Of a DNA stretch of 64,000 bases, positions 14,139 through 61,522 are shown piece after piece. The stretch is from an uncultured Bacilli bacterium (GTDB lineage: Bacteria > Bacillota_I > Bacilli_A > RF39 > UBA660). The position numbers and the translations under genes were made by a program. How positions within the stretch are numbered: the first letter of the stretch is position 1; every line of letters begins with the position of its first letter. The notes under the pieces are model-generated. The model saw only the letters and a list, made by a program, of their open reading frames with translations. It had not been told where the DNA came from and ran no database searches. The stretch is from contig CALVQQ010000001.1 of the NCBI GenBank assembly GCA_944358255.1, positions 3,295 to 67,294 of the forward strand, read 5' to 3'.

Positions 14139-15648
14139 CTTTTATAATTAAGCTTTCCCCAGTCATGTAATCTGGTTTTTTTATTTCGTACATGTCTATA
14201 ATTGTAGGCACTATATCTTTTAGTGTTCCTTCATTTTTTATTTTGTAATCTGTATTGCAAAGTATAAATGGAACTTTGTTATTTGTATGGCTTGTAACTA
14301 TGTTCCCATGTTTGTCTATCATTGTTTCTGCATTTCCATGATCTGCTGTTATTATTACATCGTAAAAGTATTCGTTTGCTTTTTCATATATTTTACCTAA
14401 ACAGAAATCACAAATTTCTACCGCGTCGACTGTTGCTTTAAAGTTTCCGGTATGCCCAACCATATCAGGATTTGCAAAGTTTACCAATATAAAGTCATAA
14501 TCTTCTTCTAATACTTTTAGTGTGGTTTCTGTAACTTCTCCTAAACTCATTTCTGGTTTTAAATCGTATGTTGCAACGTTAGGTGATGGTATCAAAAATT
14601 TGTCACAATTTGGTGATGTAAAATCTTCTCCACCGTCAAAGAAATATGTAACATGTGCATATTTTTCTGTCTCAGCTATTCTGGCTTGTTTGTATTCTAA
14701 TCCGTCTATGTATTTTCCAAATGTTGTTTCAATTTTTTCTAATTTGTATGCATATGATATTTTCTTATGTATTTCAAATATTGATGCCATTTTTACTTCA
14801 TTCAGTGGTTTTGTTTTAAACCCTTTGTAATTTGGAGATATAAGCGCGTCTATAAGTTGTGTCATTCTTTCTGGTCTAAAGTTAATGAAAATTACACCGT
14901 CTTTATCTGATATTGTTTGATTTCTATTTATTATGCTTGGATTTATAAACTCATCAGTTATATTTCTTTTATAATGTTCATTCATGCATGTTTCATAGTC
15001 TCTAAATTCATTGCCTATTCCATATACCATTGCATCGTATGCTTTTTTTGTTCTTTCTAAATTATTGTCTCTATCCATAGAAAAGTATCTTCCTGAAATT
15101 GTGCTTATAGTTCCTACATTTAACTTTTTTGCCTTTTCCATAAATTCTTTTAAAAAATTTAATCCGCTTGTGGGCAATGTGTCTCTCCCATCTGTTATAA
15201 AGTGAAAACAAACATTTTTTACTTTTTGTAATTTTGCTAATGCAAGTGTTGCATAAAAATGATTAGCACTTGAATGTACTCCACCATTTGATAATAAACC
15301 TACTATATGGAGTTTTGAATTGTTTTCTTTTACATGATTCATAACTTCTATAAGAGTTTCGTTGCTAAAGAATTCTTTGCTTTTTATTTTCTCATTTATA
15401 ATTGTCAATGGTTGTTTTATTGCTTTGCCGCATCCTATTGTCATGTGTCCAACTTCTGAGTTTCCCATCTGATTTTTTGGAAGCCCTACTTCTTCTCCAC
15501 TTGCCACTAACTCGGCACACGGAAAAGCACTTGTTAATTTATTAAATACTGGTGTATTCGCACTTTTAATTGCATTCCCTTGTTCAGGTGCATTTATTCC
15601 AAAACCATCTAAAATTATTAACATTATTTTTTTCATTTGTTTCACCAT
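14128..15648 (-). CDS. gpmI: 2,3-bisphosphoglycerate-independent phosphoglycerate mutase
   Basis: 506 aa with alkaline-phosphatase-like core (…ILDGFGI…, …ITADHGN…), typical iPGM length. Confidence 0.88.
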   Translation of the reverse strand: MVKQMKKIMLIILDGFGINAPEQGNAIKSANTPVFNKLTSAFPCAELVASGEEVGLPKNQMGNSEVGHMTIGCGKAIKQPLTIINEKIKSKEFFSNETLIEVMNHVKENNSKLHIVGLLSNGGVHSSANHFYATLALAKLQKVKNVCFHFITDGRDTLPTSGLNFLKEFMEKAKKLNVGTISTISGRYFSMDRDNNLERTKKAYDAMVYGIGNEFRDYETCMNEHYKRNITDEFINPSIINRNQTISDKDGVIFINFRPERMTQLIDALISPNYKGFKTKPLNEVKMASIFEIHKKISYAYKLEKIETTFGKYIDGLEYKQARIAETEKYAHVTYFFDGGEDFTSPNCDKFLIPSPNVATYDLKPEMSLGEVTETTLKVLEEDYDFILVNFANPDMVGHTGNFKATVDAVEICDFCLGKIYEKANEYFYDVIITADHGNAETMIDKHGNIVTSHTNNKVPFILCNTDYKIKNEGTLKDIVPTIIDMYEIKKPDYMTGESLIIKDEK

Positions 15649-47710: not shown

Positions 47711-48963
47711 TTAAGTATTAAATTTAATAGTTTCACTAATTGTATCAGATGATACCAATCTATTCATCTTATCAATAGCTTGTCTAATTTCTTCGTTTAA
47801 AGCGCTTACATAGCTTCTTTCCGTAACTTTAGTACTAGCATGACCTAATATAGCAGCAATATCCTTTAGAACCACGCCATCATGCGCTGTACGAGTGGCG
47901 AAGGTTCCTCGTAAATCATAAAAACGACAATTAGTATTTAATAGTTCCTTAATAATACTATTTGGGTCTTTAATCATATCAGTACCAGAATACGTTCCAT
48001 CTTTTCTCGTAAATACTATTTTTACTCTATTATGTTTAGAAGTATTTTCTACAACCTTATATTCTATTAACTTACCATACTTATTTCTTACTTCTTCTAA
48101 TACATATTGTTTATACTTCTTTCCATACTCTTTTTTGTACTTATTTTGTAATTTTTTATAATTACACAGTACTAAATACAGAGTGTCACAAATATAAACT
48201 TCTCTACAACTTCCAACTGTTTTAGTTGTACCTAAATACCATCTACCTTTTTTCTCGTTATCTTTGGCATATACAGTTTTATTTATTTTTATAATTCTAT
48301 TCTCTAAATCAATATCATCCCAGGTTAACGCAAATACCTCTCCTGTTCTCATTCCTGTATAACAAGCAGTAAGAAATGCACATATAAACACTTTATTATC
48401 TTTAAATCTATTCAAGATAATTTTTATTTCTTCATTAGTATAAATGTGACCTATATCATTTTTTTTAATTCAAATGATAATACTCTAGGTATTTGTAAGT
48501 CACCCGCTGGATTATTTTTAATAAATCCAAAATAATAAGTTGCATCTCTTAAAGAACTTTTAATTACTTTTTGATAATTTCTTAATGCCTCTTTCTTATT
48601 GGATGTTTGATACAATTTTAATAATGCTTGATTAAGAATATATAATGTTAATTTTGATAATTTATAATTACCTAATTCTTTTTTAATATTACTAAAAGAT
48701 TCTCTATACCTTTTTGCTGTAGAATATTTATAATTTACTTCAAAATATTCTTTCATCCAATAATCTAAATATTCAGAATATAACATTTCATATTCATTTA
48801 CTTTTTCTCCATTTATAAATTCATCATAGGCTTTTTGTCCTGCTAAATATGCTTCGTTTTTAGTTTTAAAACCTGATTTAGTAATTTGTTTTCTTTTTCC
48901 ATTTACTTTTCCTGCTTCAAAACAATACTGATATACATTTCCTCTTTTCCTAATATTGATCAT
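47711..48963 (-). pseudogene. int: phage-type tyrosine integrase, split by a frameshift at an A8 homopolymer
   Basis: N-terminal part (48451..48963) MINIRKRGNVYQYCFEAGKVNGKRKQITKSGFKTKNEAYLAG… is an arm-binding/SAM-like domain. C-terminal part (47711..48415) carries catalytic R…HxxR…Y (…LGHASTKVTERSYV…). The frames overlap at tttttttt 48459-48466; one extra A gives continuous …LKKNDIGHIYTNEEIKIILNRFKDNKVF…. Confidence 0.8.
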
Positions 48964-55836: not shown

Positions 55837-55967
55837 ACTATCCACCTCTTTTCATATAAGCCTATCTTAAACTACCACTAAAAACATATCAAGATTTTCC
55901 GATCGTCAAAATCCGACATTTATACCGCAATTTTATTTTAATATATTTGTATTATATTATTTTTAAT

Positions 55968-55997
55968 TTAGTTTCTTTTTGTAATTTTTTAGTCTGT
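55968..55997 (+). promoter_or_regulatory. candidate LytTR (AgrA-type) direct-repeat site upstream of agrB
   Basis: TTAGTTTCT (55968-55976) and TTAGTCTGT (55989-55997) are 9 bp direct repeats at 21 bp periodicity (9 bp plus 12 bp spacer), about 125 nt upstream of agrB. Confidence 0.3.
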
Positions 55998-56118
55998 ATT
56001 TCATTTTTATTTTTTTTTATAAGATTTTTGTCGTTTTATACACTTTTTTTATTTTGTTATGCTTTTTTCACTCTCCAATTTAAAAATCTTGTTATATTAT
56101 TTTACGTAAGGAGGAATT

Positions 56119-56721
56119 GTGAAAGATGTATTTGTAAATTCTTTAATGTATAGTGTTAATAAATATAAAGATTTTGATGATGTAAAACTGAAAGAAATTA
56201 AATATGGGATTGAATCTTTGTATTTGGCCGTATCAAAGACTATTGTGATTTTTTCTTTGGCTTTGTTACTGGGTTTATTTAAAAGCTTGTTGCATTTAAT
56301 GATAGCTTATACACTTTTACGATTAAATGGTTTTGGATTGCATGCAAAAAAAAGTTGGCAATGTTGGGCCGGATCTATTTTTCTGTTTTTACCAATAGCC
56401 TATTTATGTTCGACTATTTATATTGAAAAGGAAATACAATTGATTTTGTCTAGTTTTTGTTTAGTTCTAATAGGAAAGTACGCGCCAGCTGATACAGAAA
56501 AAAGACCACTGATTAATATGTCAAAGCGTAGATTGCACAAAATTTTATGTGTTATTACAACTTTGATGTATATCATAGTTATAGCCAGCTTAAAAAATAA
56601 TTATTATTGTAACATCTTGTTCTCGGCAATAGTTATTCAGACAATGTTAGTTTTACCAATTAGTTATAAAATATTTAAGTTAAGATATAACAATTATAAA
56701 TCATATATTAAACAAAATTAG
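56119..56721 (+). CDS. agrB: AgrB-family membrane peptidase (autoinducing-peptide maturation)
   Basis: 200 aa. …LRLNGFGLHAKKSWQCWAGSIFLFLPIAYL… and …GKYAPADTEKRPLINMSKRRLHKI… align with AgrB catalytic His/Cys regions and the YAPA…K(K/R)P motif. GTG start with SD GGAGGA. Confidence 0.7.
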   Translation: MKDVFVNSLMYSVNKYKDFDDVKLKEIKYGIESLYLAVSKTIVIFSLALLLGLFKSLLHLMIAYTLLRLNGFGLHAKKSWQCWAGSIFLFLPIAYLCSTIYIEKEIQLILSSFCLVLIGKYAPADTEKRPLINMSKRRLHKILCVITTLMYIIVIASLKNNYYCNILFSAIVIQTMLVLPISYKIFKLRYNNYKSYIKQN

Positions 56722-56760
56722 TAATTAACTTAAATATTTTTATAAAAGAAAAGGAGGTAT

Positions 56761-56883
56761 ATGATGAGAGTTTTTGCAAGCATAGTTTCAGCTTTAGGTA
56801 CTTTTTTTGCTCTAACAACTAGTGGTGCTTCTTGGCTTGGTTGGTTTGATGAAGCTGAAATGCCTGAAAGTTTAATTAAATAA
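56761..56883 (+). CDS. agrD: AgrD-like autoinducing peptide precursor (40 aa, no cysteine)
   Basis: Not in the ORF track (<60 aa). SD AAAGGAGGT then MMRVFASIVSALGTFFALTTSGASWLGWFDEAEMPESLIK: amphipathic N-terminal helix, hydrophobic core SWLGWF and acidic recognition tail DEAEMPESL. Lies 40 nt after agrB. Confidence 0.55.
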   Translation: MMRVFASIVSALGTFFALTTSGASWLGWFDEAEMPESLIK

Positions 56884-56904
56884 TATTTAACGTATTATTA
56901 GTTG

Positions 56905-56935
56905 AAATGGCCATAAAAATGGCCATTTTTATTGT
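56905..56935 (+). terminator. rho-independent terminator after agrBD
   Basis: AAATGGCCAT-aaaa-ATGGCCATTT 10 bp stem followed by a T-run. Confidence 0.7.
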
Positions 56936-56979
56936 ACTTGATTAGTGGATTTGATAAATAATTAAAAAAATAAGATGTT

Positions 56980-58293
56980 TTACGTATGGTTATTTCTTAT
57001 TTTTAATTTTGTTACAAAATTTTTACTTTTGTTTATATATTGTTCATACTCAATTGTTGTAGAGGATCTTTTTAATTTCTGTGCTATAAATAACCCTATC
57101 CCTCTATTTTTCCCTTTTGTAGAATAATATTTTTCGTTAATGAGATTAATATTTACCTTATTACTAAAACTATTTTCTATATAAAAAACAATAAAATTAT
57201 TTTCCATGTAAATATCTAATATGATCATCTTTTGATCGCTTTTATTTGCAGCTTCTATTGCATTATCTAAGAAAATATTTAACAATCTACATAATTTAGA
57301 ATAATCTTTGGTGTTTCTTTCGTTAAGTAGATTATTTAAATTTTTTATACAATTAAATGTAAAATTTATATTATTTTTTTCGATAATGTTTATTTTGTAA
57401 TATAATATTCCTTTTATACCTGCAGGTAAATAGCCTATATTCCTGTATTCTGTTTTATAAGATGTAGAATAGTTATTTATCAGTTCTTTTAAAAGTTTCT
57501 TAAATTCTATACTATTTTTGTCCTCATAACTATTTAATAGGACTAGATTATTTAGCATTTCGTGTTTGTTAATTCTATATTTATCAATCAAGAATTCATA
57601 TTTCTTCATGTATTCTAAAATTATTTTTTGATTTTCTTCTACGTCTATAATTTTGTTTTTATATTTTATTAATATAGTCATGCAACTTAAAATGATAATA
57701 CTAGAGACTAAATTGTTATAGTAATTTTTGATATTTATGTTAATTGTATAGATTATTATTATATATATTATAAACAAATAAAAAATGATTAGTAAGATTC
57801 TAACTATTACAGCTTGCTTATCTATAATTAAATATAAAATTTTATTTAAAAACTTTTTTGTGCTTTTTATGGATAATGTCAATATTAAATTTAAAACGAC
57901 TAATATTGAAAACAAGTTTCTTATGACTAATGAGTTTATGCTAGTTATAATGTAACTATTAGAATTAACAATCAAAAATATAAATGAATATACCAATTCA
58001 AATAATATTTCTACACTATATAGTAATAAAACTGTTATAAATATATTTTTAAAATTATCTCTATAAATTGTTGTTATAAAAACGACATTTAAAAATAAAT
58101 TTATAAATATTTTATACTCATTAAATTCAGATAAGCCAATATATATTTGTATTAATGAAAATAGTAATATTAATAATATATGATTTAATTCAATTTTTTC
58201 TTTTTGTCTTTTTGTTAATATTTTATAACCATAATATATTGCAAATACGCCAAAGCAAACACATAAATATGCAAATATATAGTTAATATCCAT
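56980..58293 (-). CDS. agrC: AgrC-like (HPK10) sensor histidine kinase
   Basis: Six or more N-terminal TM helices. H-box …RINKHEML…, N-box …LLNIFLDNAIEA…, G-box …STKGKNRGIGL…. Confidence 0.75.
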   Translation of the reverse strand: MDINYIFAYLCVCFGVFAIYYGYKILTKRQKEKIELNHILLILLFSLIQIYIGLSEFNEYKIFINLFLNVVFITTIYRDNFKNIFITVLLLYSVEILFELVYSFIFLIVNSNSYIITSINSLVIRNLFSILVVLNLILTLSIKSTKKFLNKILYLIIDKQAVIVRILLIIFYLFIIYIIIIYTININIKNYYNNLVSSIIILSCMTILIKYKNKIIDVEENQKIILEYMKKYEFLIDKYRINKHEMLNNLVLLNSYEDKNSIEFKKLLKELINNYSTSYKTEYRNIGYLPAGIKGILYYKINIIEKNNINFTFNCIKNLNNLLNERNTKDYSKLCRLLNIFLDNAIEAANKSDQKMIILDIYMENNFIVFYIENSFSNKVNINLINEKYYSTKGKNRGIGLFIAQKLKRSSTTIEYEQYINKSKNFVTKLKIRNNHT

Positions 58294-58999
58294 TTGCCAT
58301 TAGTTCCTTTTTGTGAGTTTTAGATAAAAAATATATCTCTTCACCTGTTTCAAATATTATCTTATTATCTTTCCATACAAAAGCTTCGACTTTATCTAAA
58401 TTAACCAAGCAAGCTTTATGCGTAAATTTAAATCTACCGTCTAATTTTTGTGCTAAATCGGATATGTTCATTATAACTTTATATTTTTTGTCATTTATAG
58501 TATTTATAATGCATTTTCTCTCAACAGTATCTCTATAAATATATAGTATTTTGTTTATATCAATGTTATAATCAATGCCTTTATATTTAAACTTTAATGT
58601 TTTTCTACTAGCAATTTGTTTTAAACATATATCAAATAGTTCAAATAAATTTTTCTCTGCTTCATACTGTTTGTTAACAAAGTCTAATATTTGTAATCTT
58701 TGCTTAAAAGTATCATATGCCATGCCACCATTTACAGTAAATATTATAATTGGGCTTGTCCAATCTGTTTCACGAACTTTTCTTGACAGATCTATTGCAT
58801 TTGTATTTGGTAGTTCAAAATCAAATATATAAATATTGTTATTTTCTGATGTTGAAATTAAAATATCTAGCTCTTGCGTTCTTTTTTCAAATTCAATTAT
58901 GTCAAACTCCATTTTGTTTTTCATCATATAATTTAATATTATATTTTTTATTTTCTTTCGATGAATTTTATTATCTTCGACAACCACAAAATTTATCAT
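58283..58999 (-). CDS. agrA: AgrA-like LytTR-family response regulator
   Basis: N-terminal receiver (VVVEDN…) and C-terminal LytTR domain (…KYKVIMNISDLAQKLDGRFKFTHKACLVNLDKVE…). Confidence 0.8.
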   Translation of the reverse strand: MINFVVVEDNKIHRKKIKNIILNYMMKNKMEFDIIEFEKRTQELDILISTSENNNIYIFDFELPNTNAIDLSRKVRETDWTSPIIIFTVNGGMAYDTFKQRLQILDFVNKQYEAEKNLFELFDICLKQIASRKTLKFKYKGIDYNIDINKILYIYRDTVERKCIINTINDKKYKVIMNISDLAQKLDGRFKFTHKACLVNLDKVEAFVWKDNKIIFETGEEIYFLSKTHKKELMANGY

Positions 59000-59087
59000 T
59001 TATATCCCCTTTACCTTAATTTTACGGTATATAATATAACATATTTTTATTTAAAAATAAAGGATTTATGATACCATTTAAACATAA

Positions 59088-59360
59088 TCAAGTATGTGAC
59101 TTTTTCAAACTTAAATATTTTTTTCTTGTAGATTCTCCACCTCTAATATGTCTTAAATAAATATGTTTTTTTAGAATTTTATCTACTGATAAAAATAGGT
59201 CTGCGTCTATATCTTTTAATCTACCTTGTAAGTCTTTGTGAACAGTACTTTTGCTTACATTATATTTTTTGGCAATTTCCCTGATTGTTAATTCTGTCTT
59301 CAATATATATTTTGCTTCGTTTTTTACTCTTTCTTGTATTTCTTTTTTTATTTTAAACAC
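59088..59360 (-). CDS. spoIIID: stage III sporulation transcriptional regulator SpoIIID
   Basis: 90 aa …IREIAKKYNVSKSTVHKDLQGRL…HIYLRHIRGGESTRKKY… matches SpoIIID HTH and the C-terminal basic region. Confidence 0.8.
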   Translation of the reverse strand: MFKIKKEIQERVKNEAKYILKTELTIREIAKKYNVSKSTVHKDLQGRLKDIDADLFLSVDKILKKHIYLRHIRGGESTRKKYLSLKKSHT

Positions 59361-59397
59361 CCCTAGTTAATTTTATTGTTATTAATAAAAAAAAGAC

Positions 59398-60021
59398 CTA
59401 TAGGTCTGCAATGTTTAATGTATAAAAATTTTCTGGATCCATTAGTTCTCCGTTATAATAAACTTCGAAATGCAATGATGTTGTGTAATTGGTATTTATT
59501 TTTGATGTTCCACTTGTCCCAATTATTGTTCCTTGATTAATTGTACTGCCTTCTTTTAAATCAATATTGTCAATTCCCTGATATACTGTTATTAAATTTT
59601 TGTCATGTTTTAATTTTACAATATTTCCTAGTGTGGGATCAGTTTCCACTGATATTACTTCTCCGTCTAATACTGCCACAACATCAAAGACTGTGTCACT
59701 TACGTAATCTACGCCTGAGTTTTGCATATATGTGTTTTCATAAAATATTATGCTATTTTGTTGTCTTTCTTCATCTGCTTCAAAGTCATAAAAATATTTT
59801 CCTACTTTAACATCCTCGGATAGAAATGGCTTGATTATAGTTGTTTGCGTTTCAACTACCGGTACGATGTTTTCAAATTGTGCATCTACAGCATAATTAT
59901 AATCTTTTGGTATCGTTAAGTATTTGTTAATACTTGATATAACTAATAAAATGCTTGCTACTATTAAAACCACTGCAGATATGTAGATTGATGGTATTAT
60001 CATTTTCTTTGCTTTAATCAT
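59398..60021 (-). CDS. spoIIQ: membrane-anchored degenerate LytM (M23) domain protein, SpoIIQ-like
   Basis: N-terminal TM. M23-like domain lacks the full HxH (…TSLHFEVYYNG…). Gene order spoIID, M23, spoIIID matches clostridial spoIIQ loci. Confidence 0.5.
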   Translation of the reverse strand: MIKAKKMIIPSIYISAVVLIVASILLVISSINKYLTIPKDYNYAVDAQFENIVPVVETQTTIIKPFLSEDVKVGKYFYDFEADEERQQNSIIFYENTYMQNSGVDYVSDTVFDVVAVLDGEVISVETDPTLGNIVKLKHDKNLITVYQGIDNIDLKEGSTINQGTIIGTSGTSKINTNYTTSLHFEVYYNGELMDPENFYTLNIADL

Positions 60022-60072
60022 TGTTTCACTCTCCTACTTATAAGTGTGAACAATTTTTTGTTATTTATGCAT

Positions 60073-60987
60073 TTATTTTATTAGTTCTATTCCTGTATAG
60101 TAATGTTTTAATATTTCTTCGTAGTTATAGCCAAGTTTTGCTAGTTCATTAGATCCATATTGGCTCATTCCTACTCCGTGTCCGTATCCTTTTGTAGTAA
60201 TTTTTACTGTGTATTCGTTGATTGTAATTTCAAAATCTGTAGATCTTAAATTGAGTAGTGTTCTTATTTCTGTTCCTTTAAATTTACGGTCATTAATTGT
60301 TATTTCATCAATTCTATTTGTTTCATTTTTGATAATATTGGTAATTTTTATTTCTTTTGTTTCTGGTAAATTTAATTTTTTTAAAAAATCACTTTTAGTA
60401 ATTTCTATTGTTTTATTAAATTGAGTGGTATTTTTGTCGTAGTTAGAATCGACACTAACTAAATAATCTAATTTTTCACCAAACACATTTTCTACGTTTT
60501 CTGTTTTTCCATTTGATGTGGAAAAATAAAGCGCTTTTATGATTTCTCCATTATATGTCATATACTCGTCTTTTGTTTCTTTTACTGCTTTTTCAATTTT
60601 ACTCTTATATTCATTATAATTATTTCCCCATTTTTCTTTTAGTTCGTTTTCATCACTATAGCATTGGTCATTTGTTGTTGATGAGATAATGTAATTTTCA
60701 TTATTTTCTAATTTGTTTAACAAATATGTTCTTGCTGCTACAGCTCCCGCTTTTAAAGCTTCTTCTTCAAATAGTGCTGGCATTTCACATCCAACTACTC
60801 CTATTAAATATTCTTCAATATTCATTTCGTATATGTTAGTGTCTTTGTTGACTTTTACTACTTTACTTGTTTCTGTACTTGTATAAATTTTTTCGACTTT
60901 TACTTCACTACCTTTTTGAAAGCACAATAAAATAAGTAGTACTATTATGGTAAAAGAAAAGAATATATATATATGTTTTGATTTCAT
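60073..60987 (-). CDS. spoIID: stage II sporulation protein D (SpoIID lytic transglycosylase)
   Basis: …EEALKAGAVAARTYLL… and C-terminal …GYGHGVGMSQYGSNELAKLGYNYEEILKHYYTG… signature. Confidence 0.85.
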   Translation of the reverse strand: MKSKHIYIFFSFTIIVLLILLCFQKGSEVKVEKIYTSTETSKVVKVNKDTNIYEMNIEEYLIGVVGCEMPALFEEEALKAGAVAARTYLLNKLENNENYIISSTTNDQCYSDENELKEKWGNNYNEYKSKIEKAVKETKDEYMTYNGEIIKALYFSTSNGKTENVENVFGEKLDYLVSVDSNYDKNTTQFNKTIEITKSDFLKKLNLPETKEIKITNIIKNETNRIDEITINDRKFKGTEIRTLLNLRSTDFEITINEYTVKITTKGYGHGVGMSQYGSNELAKLGYNYEEILKHYYTGIELIK

Positions 60988-61001
60988 ATATTTATATATT
61001 C

Positions 61002-61457
61002 TTATTTTTTTGTTTTAGAACAATTTTTTTCTAATTTTTGTATTTTTTTTATTCTATTGTCGTAGTTTGGTTGATTTAGAAATTCAGTTTGCATGAATTT
61101 ATCTACCATATCTTTTATAATTAGCATGCTTTTTTTGGCACTAAAACTTATTACATTTGCATTGTTGTGTGCTTTTGCATAGTATGCATCTTCTTCGTTA
61201 TCAATTTTAGCGCACATTATTCCTTTGATTTTATTTGCTGCTATGCTCATTCCTATTCCTGTGCCACAGATTAAAATTCCAAAATCTAATTTATCTTTTT
61301 TTATACCTTTACATAATAATTCTGCATAATCTACATAGTCTACTATTACTCCTGAATCTGTTCCATAATCTATAACTTCATTTTTTTTGTTTAGATATTT
61401 AATAAGTTTCTTCTTTACTTCGTATCCTCTGTGATCACTTGCAATTCCTATTTTCAT
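61002..61457 (-). CDS. rpiB: ribose-5-phosphate isomerase B (RpiB/LacA/LacB family)
   Basis: MKIGIASDHRGYEVKKKL…ILICGTGIGMSIAANK…. Confidence 0.85.
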   Translation of the reverse strand: MKIGIASDHRGYEVKKKLIKYLNKKNEVIDYGTDSGVIVDYVDYAELLCKGIKKDKLDFGILICGTGIGMSIAANKIKGIMCAKIDNEEDAYYAKAHNNANVISFSAKKSMLIIKDMVDKFMQTEFLNQPNYDNRIKKIQKLEKNCSKTKK

Positions 61458-61522
61458 TTTACCACCAATTTTATTATATCATTTACTATTATTATTTAAA
61501 ATAAAAAAAGACTTATTTGCCT

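Follow-up and report, generated by a model that had tools for sequence, protein, structure and literature searches.

A probable agr-type quorum-sensing module of two convergent units with pherotype-like variation in an uncultured Bacilli lineage

We analyzed a 64,000-nucleotide (nt) stretch of DNA from an uncultured Bacilli bacterium (contig CALVQQ010000001.1; GC content, 28%), referred to as the window, in which a preliminary description had reported the four genes of an agr-type quorum-sensing locus, agrB, agrD, agrC, and agrA, next to a sporulation gene cluster. All evidence considered here is sequence from metagenomes. The open reading frame (ORF) listing placed the four genes at exactly the coordinates reported, and profile searches returned a match for each of the four products, as expected of a complete agr-type locus. 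The agrBD unit on the plus strand and the agrAC unit on the minus strand converge from either side of a strong hairpin terminator, and agrAC lies directly 3' of spoIIID, which bears out the split architecture that had been proposed. The locus comprises the following features.

56119-56721, plus strand: agrB, membrane peptidase/cyclase predicted to process AgrD (Pfam family AgrB)
56761-56883, plus strand: agrD, autoinducer precursor of 39 to 40 amino acids (TIGR04223)
56904-56929, both strands: hairpin terminator common to agrBD and agrAC, an 11-pair stem followed by TTTTTATT
56980-58293, minus strand: agrC, polytopic sensor histidine kinase and predicted receptor of the autoinducing peptide (AIP) (HATPase_c_5)
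58283-58999, minus strand: agrA, response regulator with a LytTR DNA-binding domain (Response_reg and LytTR)

Gene callers and homologues begin agrD one codon later, at 56764, and agrA and agrC overlap by 11 nt. AgrB matched PF04647 with 103 bits (E = 1.5e-29; cutoff, 23) and NF002210 with 119 bits. AgrD scored 21.6 bits against TIGR04223, over the cutoff of 19; a Pfam search with AgrD gave no match. AgrC matched PF14501 (HATPase_c_5; 47.5 bits, E = 1.8e-12), a GHKL domain typical of AgrC-type kinases, and AgrA matched both PF00072 (Response_reg; 35.7 bits) and PF04397 (LytTR; 42.1 bits). All four protein components by which we judged membership in the agr family are present.

Individual residues and motifs point in the same direction. 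Across 17 AgrB homologues, with identities as low as 44%, His75 and Cys82 do not vary. They are seven residues apart, as are His77 and Cys84, the catalytic pair of Staphylococcus aureus AgrB. The AgrB of the window has about four hydrophobic segments, and a search of solved structures identified no relative of it. For AgrC, the sole solved-structure matches were those of S. aureus AgrC (4BXI and 6E52), with which the H-box (KHEMLNNL versus RHDYVNIL; His244), the N-box (LDNAIEA), and the G-box (STKG..RG.GL) align; residues 1 to 181 contain five to six hydrophobic segments. The best solved relative of AgrA was ComE (4CBV), another LytTR quorum regulator, and Asp60 is located in its receiver domain.

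The predicted core of AgrD, SWLGWF, is encoded at 56830-56847 and is followed by the recognition tail DEAEMPESLIK. Among 16 AgrD homologues, the leader (…FFALTTSGA) and the tail are almost invariant, while the core varies, with at least nine distinct cores in the clade (SWLGWF, SWIGFF, SWIGFL, SWIWWF, SWMLWF, SWWGWL, SWILWF, CWISWF, and CWISFI). At the first core position, Ser is exchanged for Cys only, which would mark this position as the cyclizing residue. Counted from this residue, the DE of the tail begins at +6 and the conserved Pro is at +11 in the AgrD family, and in the AgrD of Clostridium thermocellum, for which the lactone was verified by mass spectrometry, Ser25, Phe29, and Pro35 give a spacing of +10 (PMC5322536). 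Because the cyclizing residue is located 11 rather than 10 residues before the conserved Pro, the ring most likely comprises six residues (SWLGWF), i.e., the core is one residue longer than the canonical core. The extra residue is also present in distant Cys-bearing AgrDs (C-VIIYV-DEPE, C-IVVYL-DEPE, and C-IAIIL-DEPE) and is thus a trait of the family, and six-residue macrocycles exist among AIPs according to a 2025 primer (PMC12312760). The SGA/S junction resembles a signal-peptidase site, and cleavage after SGA may generate an AIP without an N-terminal tail. AIPs of this tail-less kind are able to rearrange into head-to-tail cyclopeptides (PMC8251862), and the peptide encoded here could do so as well.

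The strong terminator proposed after agrD was confirmed by a hairpin scan, in which 0.4 terminator-like sites were expected by chance in the scanned region, and by comparison of the fold with shuffled sequences (z of −2.6 on the plus strand and −3.6 on the minus strand). An A/T-flanked hairpin is located between agrD and agrC in five of five sister lineages, i.e., the window, L007, L019, L021/22, and L023/24, with unrelated stems (GGCCAT, GTCACGAT, CTCGC, ACTACAAAA, and CTCCTAA). The retention of a hairpin with differing stems represents structural rather than sequence conservation, as expected of a working bidirectional terminator. In L023 (6961-7176), the agrD-agrC spacer measures 234 nt versus 47 to 114 nt in the other lineages. 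A Shine-Dalgarno-like AAGGAGGTG with a TTG after it is located in this spacer and may point to an additional small ORF or to an inserted element.

The sister lineages share the gene order secA-hpf-csp, then agrB-agrD facing agrC-agrA-spoIIID-spoIIQ-spoIID, and the convergent layout is also found in three more distant lineages (L025/26, L027, and L028), in which AgrB is 45 to 51% identical. Among these lineages, relatives with unrelated genes at this site and no peptide gene, which the preliminary description had named as evidence against its proposal, were not seen. Among the five sister lineages, protein identity is 79 to 99% for Hpf, Csp, SpoIIQ, and SpoIID and 69 to 91% for SpoIIID. For the agr proteins, it is 81 to 98% for AgrA, 60 to 93% for AgrB, 80 to 87% for AgrD, and 34 to 51% for AgrC. 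A sliding profile of mean pairwise DNA identity over these lineages delimited one variable segment.

~55950-58300: hypervariable (pherotype) block, comprising the agrB upstream region, agrB, agrD, the terminator, and agrC

DNA identity is 0.85 to 0.95 in the flanks and 0.25 to 0.8 in the variable block. It drops within the agrB upstream region, reaches a minimum of 0.25 to 0.5 around the terminator and the sensor half of agrC, and returns to 0.83 to 0.87 exactly at the agrC/agrA junction; the kinase half of agrC is also diverged (0.60 to 0.68). Between sister lineages, a hypervariable agrB-agrD-agrC segment is thus located between a conserved agrA and conserved flanks. The staphylococcal agr specificity groups are likewise characterized by a variable segment and a conserved agrA (PMC10482373, PMC12312760). 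Based on these comparisons, we conclude that the variation in agrB-agrD-agrC follows the pattern of agr specificity groups (pherotypes) between sister lineages. Within the species of the window, 16 contigs carry all four agr genes at full length and 99.8 to 100% identity, i.e., one allele, in a sample biased by the fact that these contigs were found by an exact match to the SpoIIID protein. The GC content is 16 to 20% across agrC (window 57200-58600) and lowest over the half encoding the sensor domain, with 25 to 31% in the flanks, and this dip coincides with the most divergent segment. One contig (L018:1-4400; ena:ERZ28614392 scaffold_6245; window ~58000-61500) is a mosaic: over the spoIID segment (~450-1600), it matches the L021 lineage at ~100% identity, and in the flanking DNA, which includes the entire agr block, it matches the window at 100%. 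It reflects either homologous recombination between lineages or a chimera of metagenome assembly.

In the DNA upstream of the two units, we identified the following candidate regulatory elements.

55968-55976, plus strand: direct repeat 1, TTAGTTTCT, candidate AgrA/LytTR half-site
55989-55997, plus strand: direct repeat 2, TTAGTCTGT, 21 bp downstream of repeat 1
56090-56098, plus strand: extended −10-like element TGTTATATT, candidate agrB promoter, 11 nt 5' of the agrB Shine-Dalgarno sequence
59033-59041, minus strand: extended −10-like element TGTTATATT, candidate agrAC promoter upstream of agrA
59054-59066, minus strand: conserved block AATCCTTTATTTT, spanning the −35 region of the candidate agrAC promoter

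The two direct repeats, which had been proposed as a LytTR site, are identical at seven of nine positions with a 21-bp period. Each of the five sister lineages keeps the repeat core T[A/T]GT[T/C]T and the 21-bp period despite a diverged spacer. In L019, L025, and L027, a repeat with this period lies at approximately −155 relative to the start of agrB, and clearer copies are present in the distant relatives, with TTTTTGTCATAAA occurring twice in L025 (a perfect 13-mer) and TTTTGTCAT twice in L027. In a scan of offsets over seven lineages, offset 21 scored 72 versus 49 to 60 at all other offsets from 10 to 40, and none of 500 shuffles reached 72. From this cross-lineage comparison of cores, distant copies, and offsets, and from it only, we conclude that a direct repeat with a 21-bp period appears to be a real trait of this agr family, which would fit LytTR binding. 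A scan of the whole window for the degenerate repeat at one mismatch gave 19 sites versus 17.6 expected and, thus, no further candidate AgrA targets. In L007 (~14900-14990) and L021, the second repeat appears to be followed, after another 21 bp, by a third unit (TAGTTGTTT or TAGTTGTAT), which would give three phased half-sites.

The motif TGnTATAnT is conserved before agrB in five lineages, where it is a candidate promoter by its sequence, and also before agrA. A promoter-like element upstream of agrA is present in every lineage examined, and L025 and L027 have an equivalent TGGTATTAT element before agrA, 3' of a terminator. A scan for the promoter consensus gave 38 sites versus 35 expected and is uninformative in AT-rich DNA. 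By eye, we rejected a Spo0A box (TGTCGAA) upstream of agrB, where TGTCGTT is found in the window only and is not conserved, as well as AgrA-type repeats upstream of agrA. The ~100 nt 5' of the cold-shock gene (window 55846-55945; leader and promoter, minus strand) are almost invariant in the five lineages and more conserved than most nearby coding DNA, with no match to an Rfam family.

We consider it likely that the locus is a complete agr-type peptide quorum-sensing module of two convergent units sharing a hairpin terminator, and that it works as follows. AgrB, using His75 and Cys82, would cut the DEAEMPESLIK tail off AgrD and cyclize the core via Ser24 to a lactone, or to a thiolactone in the Cys-bearing relatives. 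The exported peptide would be sensed by the polytopic kinase AgrC (His244), which would phosphorylate AgrA (Asp60). Phosphorylated AgrA would then bind the 21-bp-period direct repeats ~150 nt upstream of agrB, resulting in autoinduction of agrBD, while transcription of agrAC would start at a conserved extended −10 promoter of its own, to which read-through from spoIIID may add. In this scheme, the agrB-agrD-agrC segment would have diversified into mutually distinct alleles (pherotypes), with agrA and the flanks remaining conserved.

Some observations weigh against this scheme. AgrA and AgrC score far under the staphylococcal equivalog cutoffs: the top NCBIfam match of AgrA is AgrA NF046049 with 43 bits versus a cutoff of 400, and AgrC scores 16.5 bits against NF046015 versus a cutoff of 500. 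By these scores, both qualify as members of the families but not as orthologue-level matches. The six-residue ring is deduced from spacing alone, and a five-residue ring with a shifted AgrB cut is possible. Considering the window alone, the degenerate repeat pattern is at chance level (1 match versus 0.69 expected; 50 of 100 shuffles gave at least 1), so that of the LytTR site as first proposed, the presence of the repeats stands and their period is backed across lineages, while the window by itself does not distinguish them from chance. Finally, ~95 nt lie between the repeats and the −10-like element downstream of them, the only such element conserved before agrB, and this distance implies that the element is not the autoinduced promoter or that the geometry is unlike that of S. 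aureus P2.

The preliminary description had gone further and deduced quorum control of sporulation from the position of the locus. In this reading, agrAC would be wired into the sporulation cluster and co-transcribed with spoIIID in the mother cell, and quorum sensing would gate or synchronize sporulation. Two further features bear on this proposal.

59088-59360, minus strand: spoIIID (PF12116, 1.3e-25), upstream of and co-directional with agrA, separated from it by an 88-nt gap
59394-59407, minus strand: spoIIQ terminator, a conserved hairpin AGACCTATAGGTCT followed by T8

The 88-nt spoIIID-agrA spacer is without a terminator-like fold (z of −0.4 in the window and −1.05 in L007); spoIIID, agrA, and agrC are bracketed by two terminators; and the adjacency of spoIIID and agr is conserved in five lineages. 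Moreover, agr affects sporulation in Clostridium acetobutylicum and Ruminiclostridium cellulolyticum (PMC8748961, PMC8251862), and in acetogens an agr locus adjoins a spo0E-like gene (PMC8748961). However, in the three distant lineages, the convergent agr genes occupy the same position, flanked by csp and the SpoIIQ-like gene, while spoIIID is absent as judged by tblastn, as is spoIID in two of the three (L025/26 and L027). Downstream of the SpoIIQ-like gene, L025 and L027 have a terminator-like hairpin with a T-run and then agrA's own TGGTATTAT element, and agrA has such a conserved promoter-like element of its own throughout the lineages examined. An inspection of the DNA near the agr genes, by eye only, identified no sporulation-sigma promoter or Spo0A box, and adjacency of genes does not by itself show regulation. 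That agr is kept where the adjacent sporulation genes were lost argues that agr functions independently of spoIIID and that the adjacency is better explained as inherited synteny. We consider the proposed wiring into sporulation unlikely, and an argument for it from adjacency is weak.

Since no terminator separates spoIIID and agrA, read-through from the former into the latter is possible in the spore-forming clade. It is more doubtful still that read-through from a mother-cell spoIIID promoter boosts the receptor during sporulation and thereby couples a pherotype signal, in the form of a six-residue lactone or a rearranged head-to-tail cyclic hexapeptide, to the commitment to sporulation among co-resident sister lineages in the gut. 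At the upstream end of spoIIID (window 59361-59410, minus strand), the hairpin AGACCTATAGGTCT with T8 overlaps the spoIIQ stop codon and leaves ~30 nt before the GTG start codon of spoIIID; the promoter of this gene must therefore extend into the hairpin or into the 3' end of spoIIQ. Relatives with SecA at ~78% and AgrB at 45 to 51% identity keep the SpoIIQ-like M23 gene (42 to 46% identical; L025:8748-9990, L027:8845-10480, and L028:4848-6560), and this pattern suggests a stepwise erosion of sporulation genes in related metagenome-assembled genome (MAG) lineages labeled "Bacilli bacterium" or "Tenericutes bacterium."

A recent acquisition of the agr genes as a mobile cassette, e.g., from a phage, would fit with the integrases and strain-variable DNA a few kb away, beyond secA, with the GC content of agrC (16 to 20% versus 25 to 31% in the flanks), and with the existence of phage-borne agr genes (PMC3901668). 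Against such an origin, the same housekeeping flanks (csp, hpf, and secA on one side; spoIIQ and rpiB on the other) are found in eight of eight lineages, down to 45% AgrB identity, which argues for an ancestral position; secA separates the locus from the variable DNA that bears the integrases; and the low GC content coincides with a hydrophobic, fast-evolving sensor domain. We regard this origin as very improbable, and foreign DNA as the source of the GC dip was rejected because the dip is confined to agrC and the position is ancestral. We give the least credence of all to a bacteriocin-pheromone LytTR system of the ComDE/Blp type, or to an unrelated membrane protein beside an orphan two-component system, for although the closest solved relative of AgrA is ComE rather than S. 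aureus AgrA, AgrA and AgrC fall far below the staphylococcal cutoffs, and AgrD lacks a Pfam match, a genuine AgrB (103 bits, with the catalytic His and Cys) is located directly 5' of a peptide gene that passes TIGR04223 and encodes an acidic, Pro-containing agr-type tail, the kinase matches only S. aureus AgrC among solved structures, and the gene lists hold no double-glycine leader or ABC exporter at the locus.

The neighbors of the agr module are csp, hpf, and secA on one side and spoIIID, the SpoIIQ-like M23 gene, and spoIID on the other. The SpoIIQ-like protein has an M23 domain and scores 154 bits against NF053738, under its cutoff of 250, and SpoIID scores 301 bits against TIGR02870. The preliminary description can be read as implying a Clostridium host, but the closest relatives that carry a label are MAGs with the names "Bacilli bacterium" or "Tenericutes bacterium." The exact proteins were found on metagenome contigs only. 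Among species-representative genomes, the nearest is an "uncultured Bacilli bacterium" MAG with a SpoIID 91% identical, AgrB homologues at 48 to 50% identity are labeled "Bacilli bacterium," and SecA homologues at 77 to 78% identity are labeled "Tenericutes bacterium" or "Bacilli bacterium." Among the 120 SecA matches listed, each at 74% identity or higher, there was no cultured species by name. A SpoIID scan of the genome collection returned two loci only, and the outgroup L008 is not syntenic, with rplS, lepB, ylqF, and rnhB following spoIID. Beyond secA (window below 52492), the DNA is strain variable, with integrases in several contigs (L001 to L004, L019, and L027). The integrase gene of the window (47711-48963, minus strand) is split into a part encoding the Arm-DNA-bind_4 and SAM-like domains (48451-48963) and a part encoding the catalytic domain (47711-48415), and, located beside a GH3 gene, is probably what is left of an integrated element that has decayed.

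These results extend agr-type signaling with staphylococcus-like pherotype diversification to a widely sampled low-GC lineage, labeled Bacilli or "Tenericutes," that is known only from metagenomes. They also provide a compact set of naturally occurring AgrD, AgrB, and AgrC variants (at least nine cores; AgrC identity, 34 to 51%, versus 80 to 96% for the backbone), with a probable six-residue lactone ring, which is usable for the study of receptor-ligand co-evolution. They reveal no new mechanism, and the comparison with relatives does not support the link to sporulation. A literature search returned nothing specific on convergent agrBD/agrCA units or on agr in Erysipelotrichia-like taxa, which is absence of evidence only, made without a systematic genome survey.

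Compared with agrBDCA of S. aureus, the locus has the same four protein functions, the spacing of seven between the His and Cys of AgrB, an AgrC kinase core that aligns to 4BXI and 6E52, a LytTR regulator with candidate direct-repeat sites of ~21-bp period, and a hypervariable agrB-agrD-agrC segment next to a conserved agrA (PMC10482373, PMC12312760). It differs in that the single co-directional operon of S. aureus is replaced by two convergent units (in eight lineages). A scan of the whole window at Rfam gathering scores matched no family, i.e., no RNAIII-like or other known RNA, and the locus is without RNAIII or a divergent P3, the divergent neighbor being the cold-shock gene. Moreover, this clade uses Ser, predicted to form a lactone, where S. 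aureus uses Cys, the core is one residue longer, and the divergence spans the whole of AgrC, including the kinase half, rather than the sensor half only. Lacking a single operon, RNAIII, and equivalog-level similarity, the locus is not of the staphylococcal type.

In clostridial systems, e.g., in C. acetobutylicum, agrBD and agrCA are predicted to form separate transcription units (PMC3754575, PMC12312760), and, as here, neither these split loci nor agr2 of Clostridioides difficile (agrACDB) has an RNAIII. Links to sporulation and, in some cases, six-residue macrocycles have been reported for clostridial agr systems (PMC12312760), and in R. cellulolyticum, Rc-AIP1 controls sporulation (PMC8251862). 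As far as the cited texts state, the clostridial loci are co-directional, whereas the two units of the present locus converge on a common terminator; in addition, the regulator gene precedes the kinase gene (agrA-agrC), and the host belongs to a lineage labeled Bacilli or "Tenericutes" rather than to the Clostridia. Given that agr loci with agrBD and agrCA in separate operons, and loci with other gene orders, have been documented (PMC12312760, PMC3754575), the architecture is less unusual than the preliminary description had made it. The fsr system of Enterococcus faecalis, with its peptide GBAP, shares the Ser-derived lactone, a macrocycle of more than five residues, and the lack of RNAIII (PMC12312760), but the GBAP ring has nine residues versus the six predicted here, and fsr is co-directional with another gene order. 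C. (Hungateiclostridium) thermocellum produces a Ser-lactone pentapeptide, and a tail-less AIP was predicted from a signal-peptidase-like cut just before the cyclizing residue (PMC5322536), comparable to SGA/S here; its spacing to Pro is +10 and its agrD is an orphan, while here the spacing is +11 and the full set of agrB, agrC, and agrA is present. Variable gene order, separate operons, Ser-lactones, and six-residue rings are all described for agr-type systems already (PMC3754575, PMC12312760, PMC5322536).

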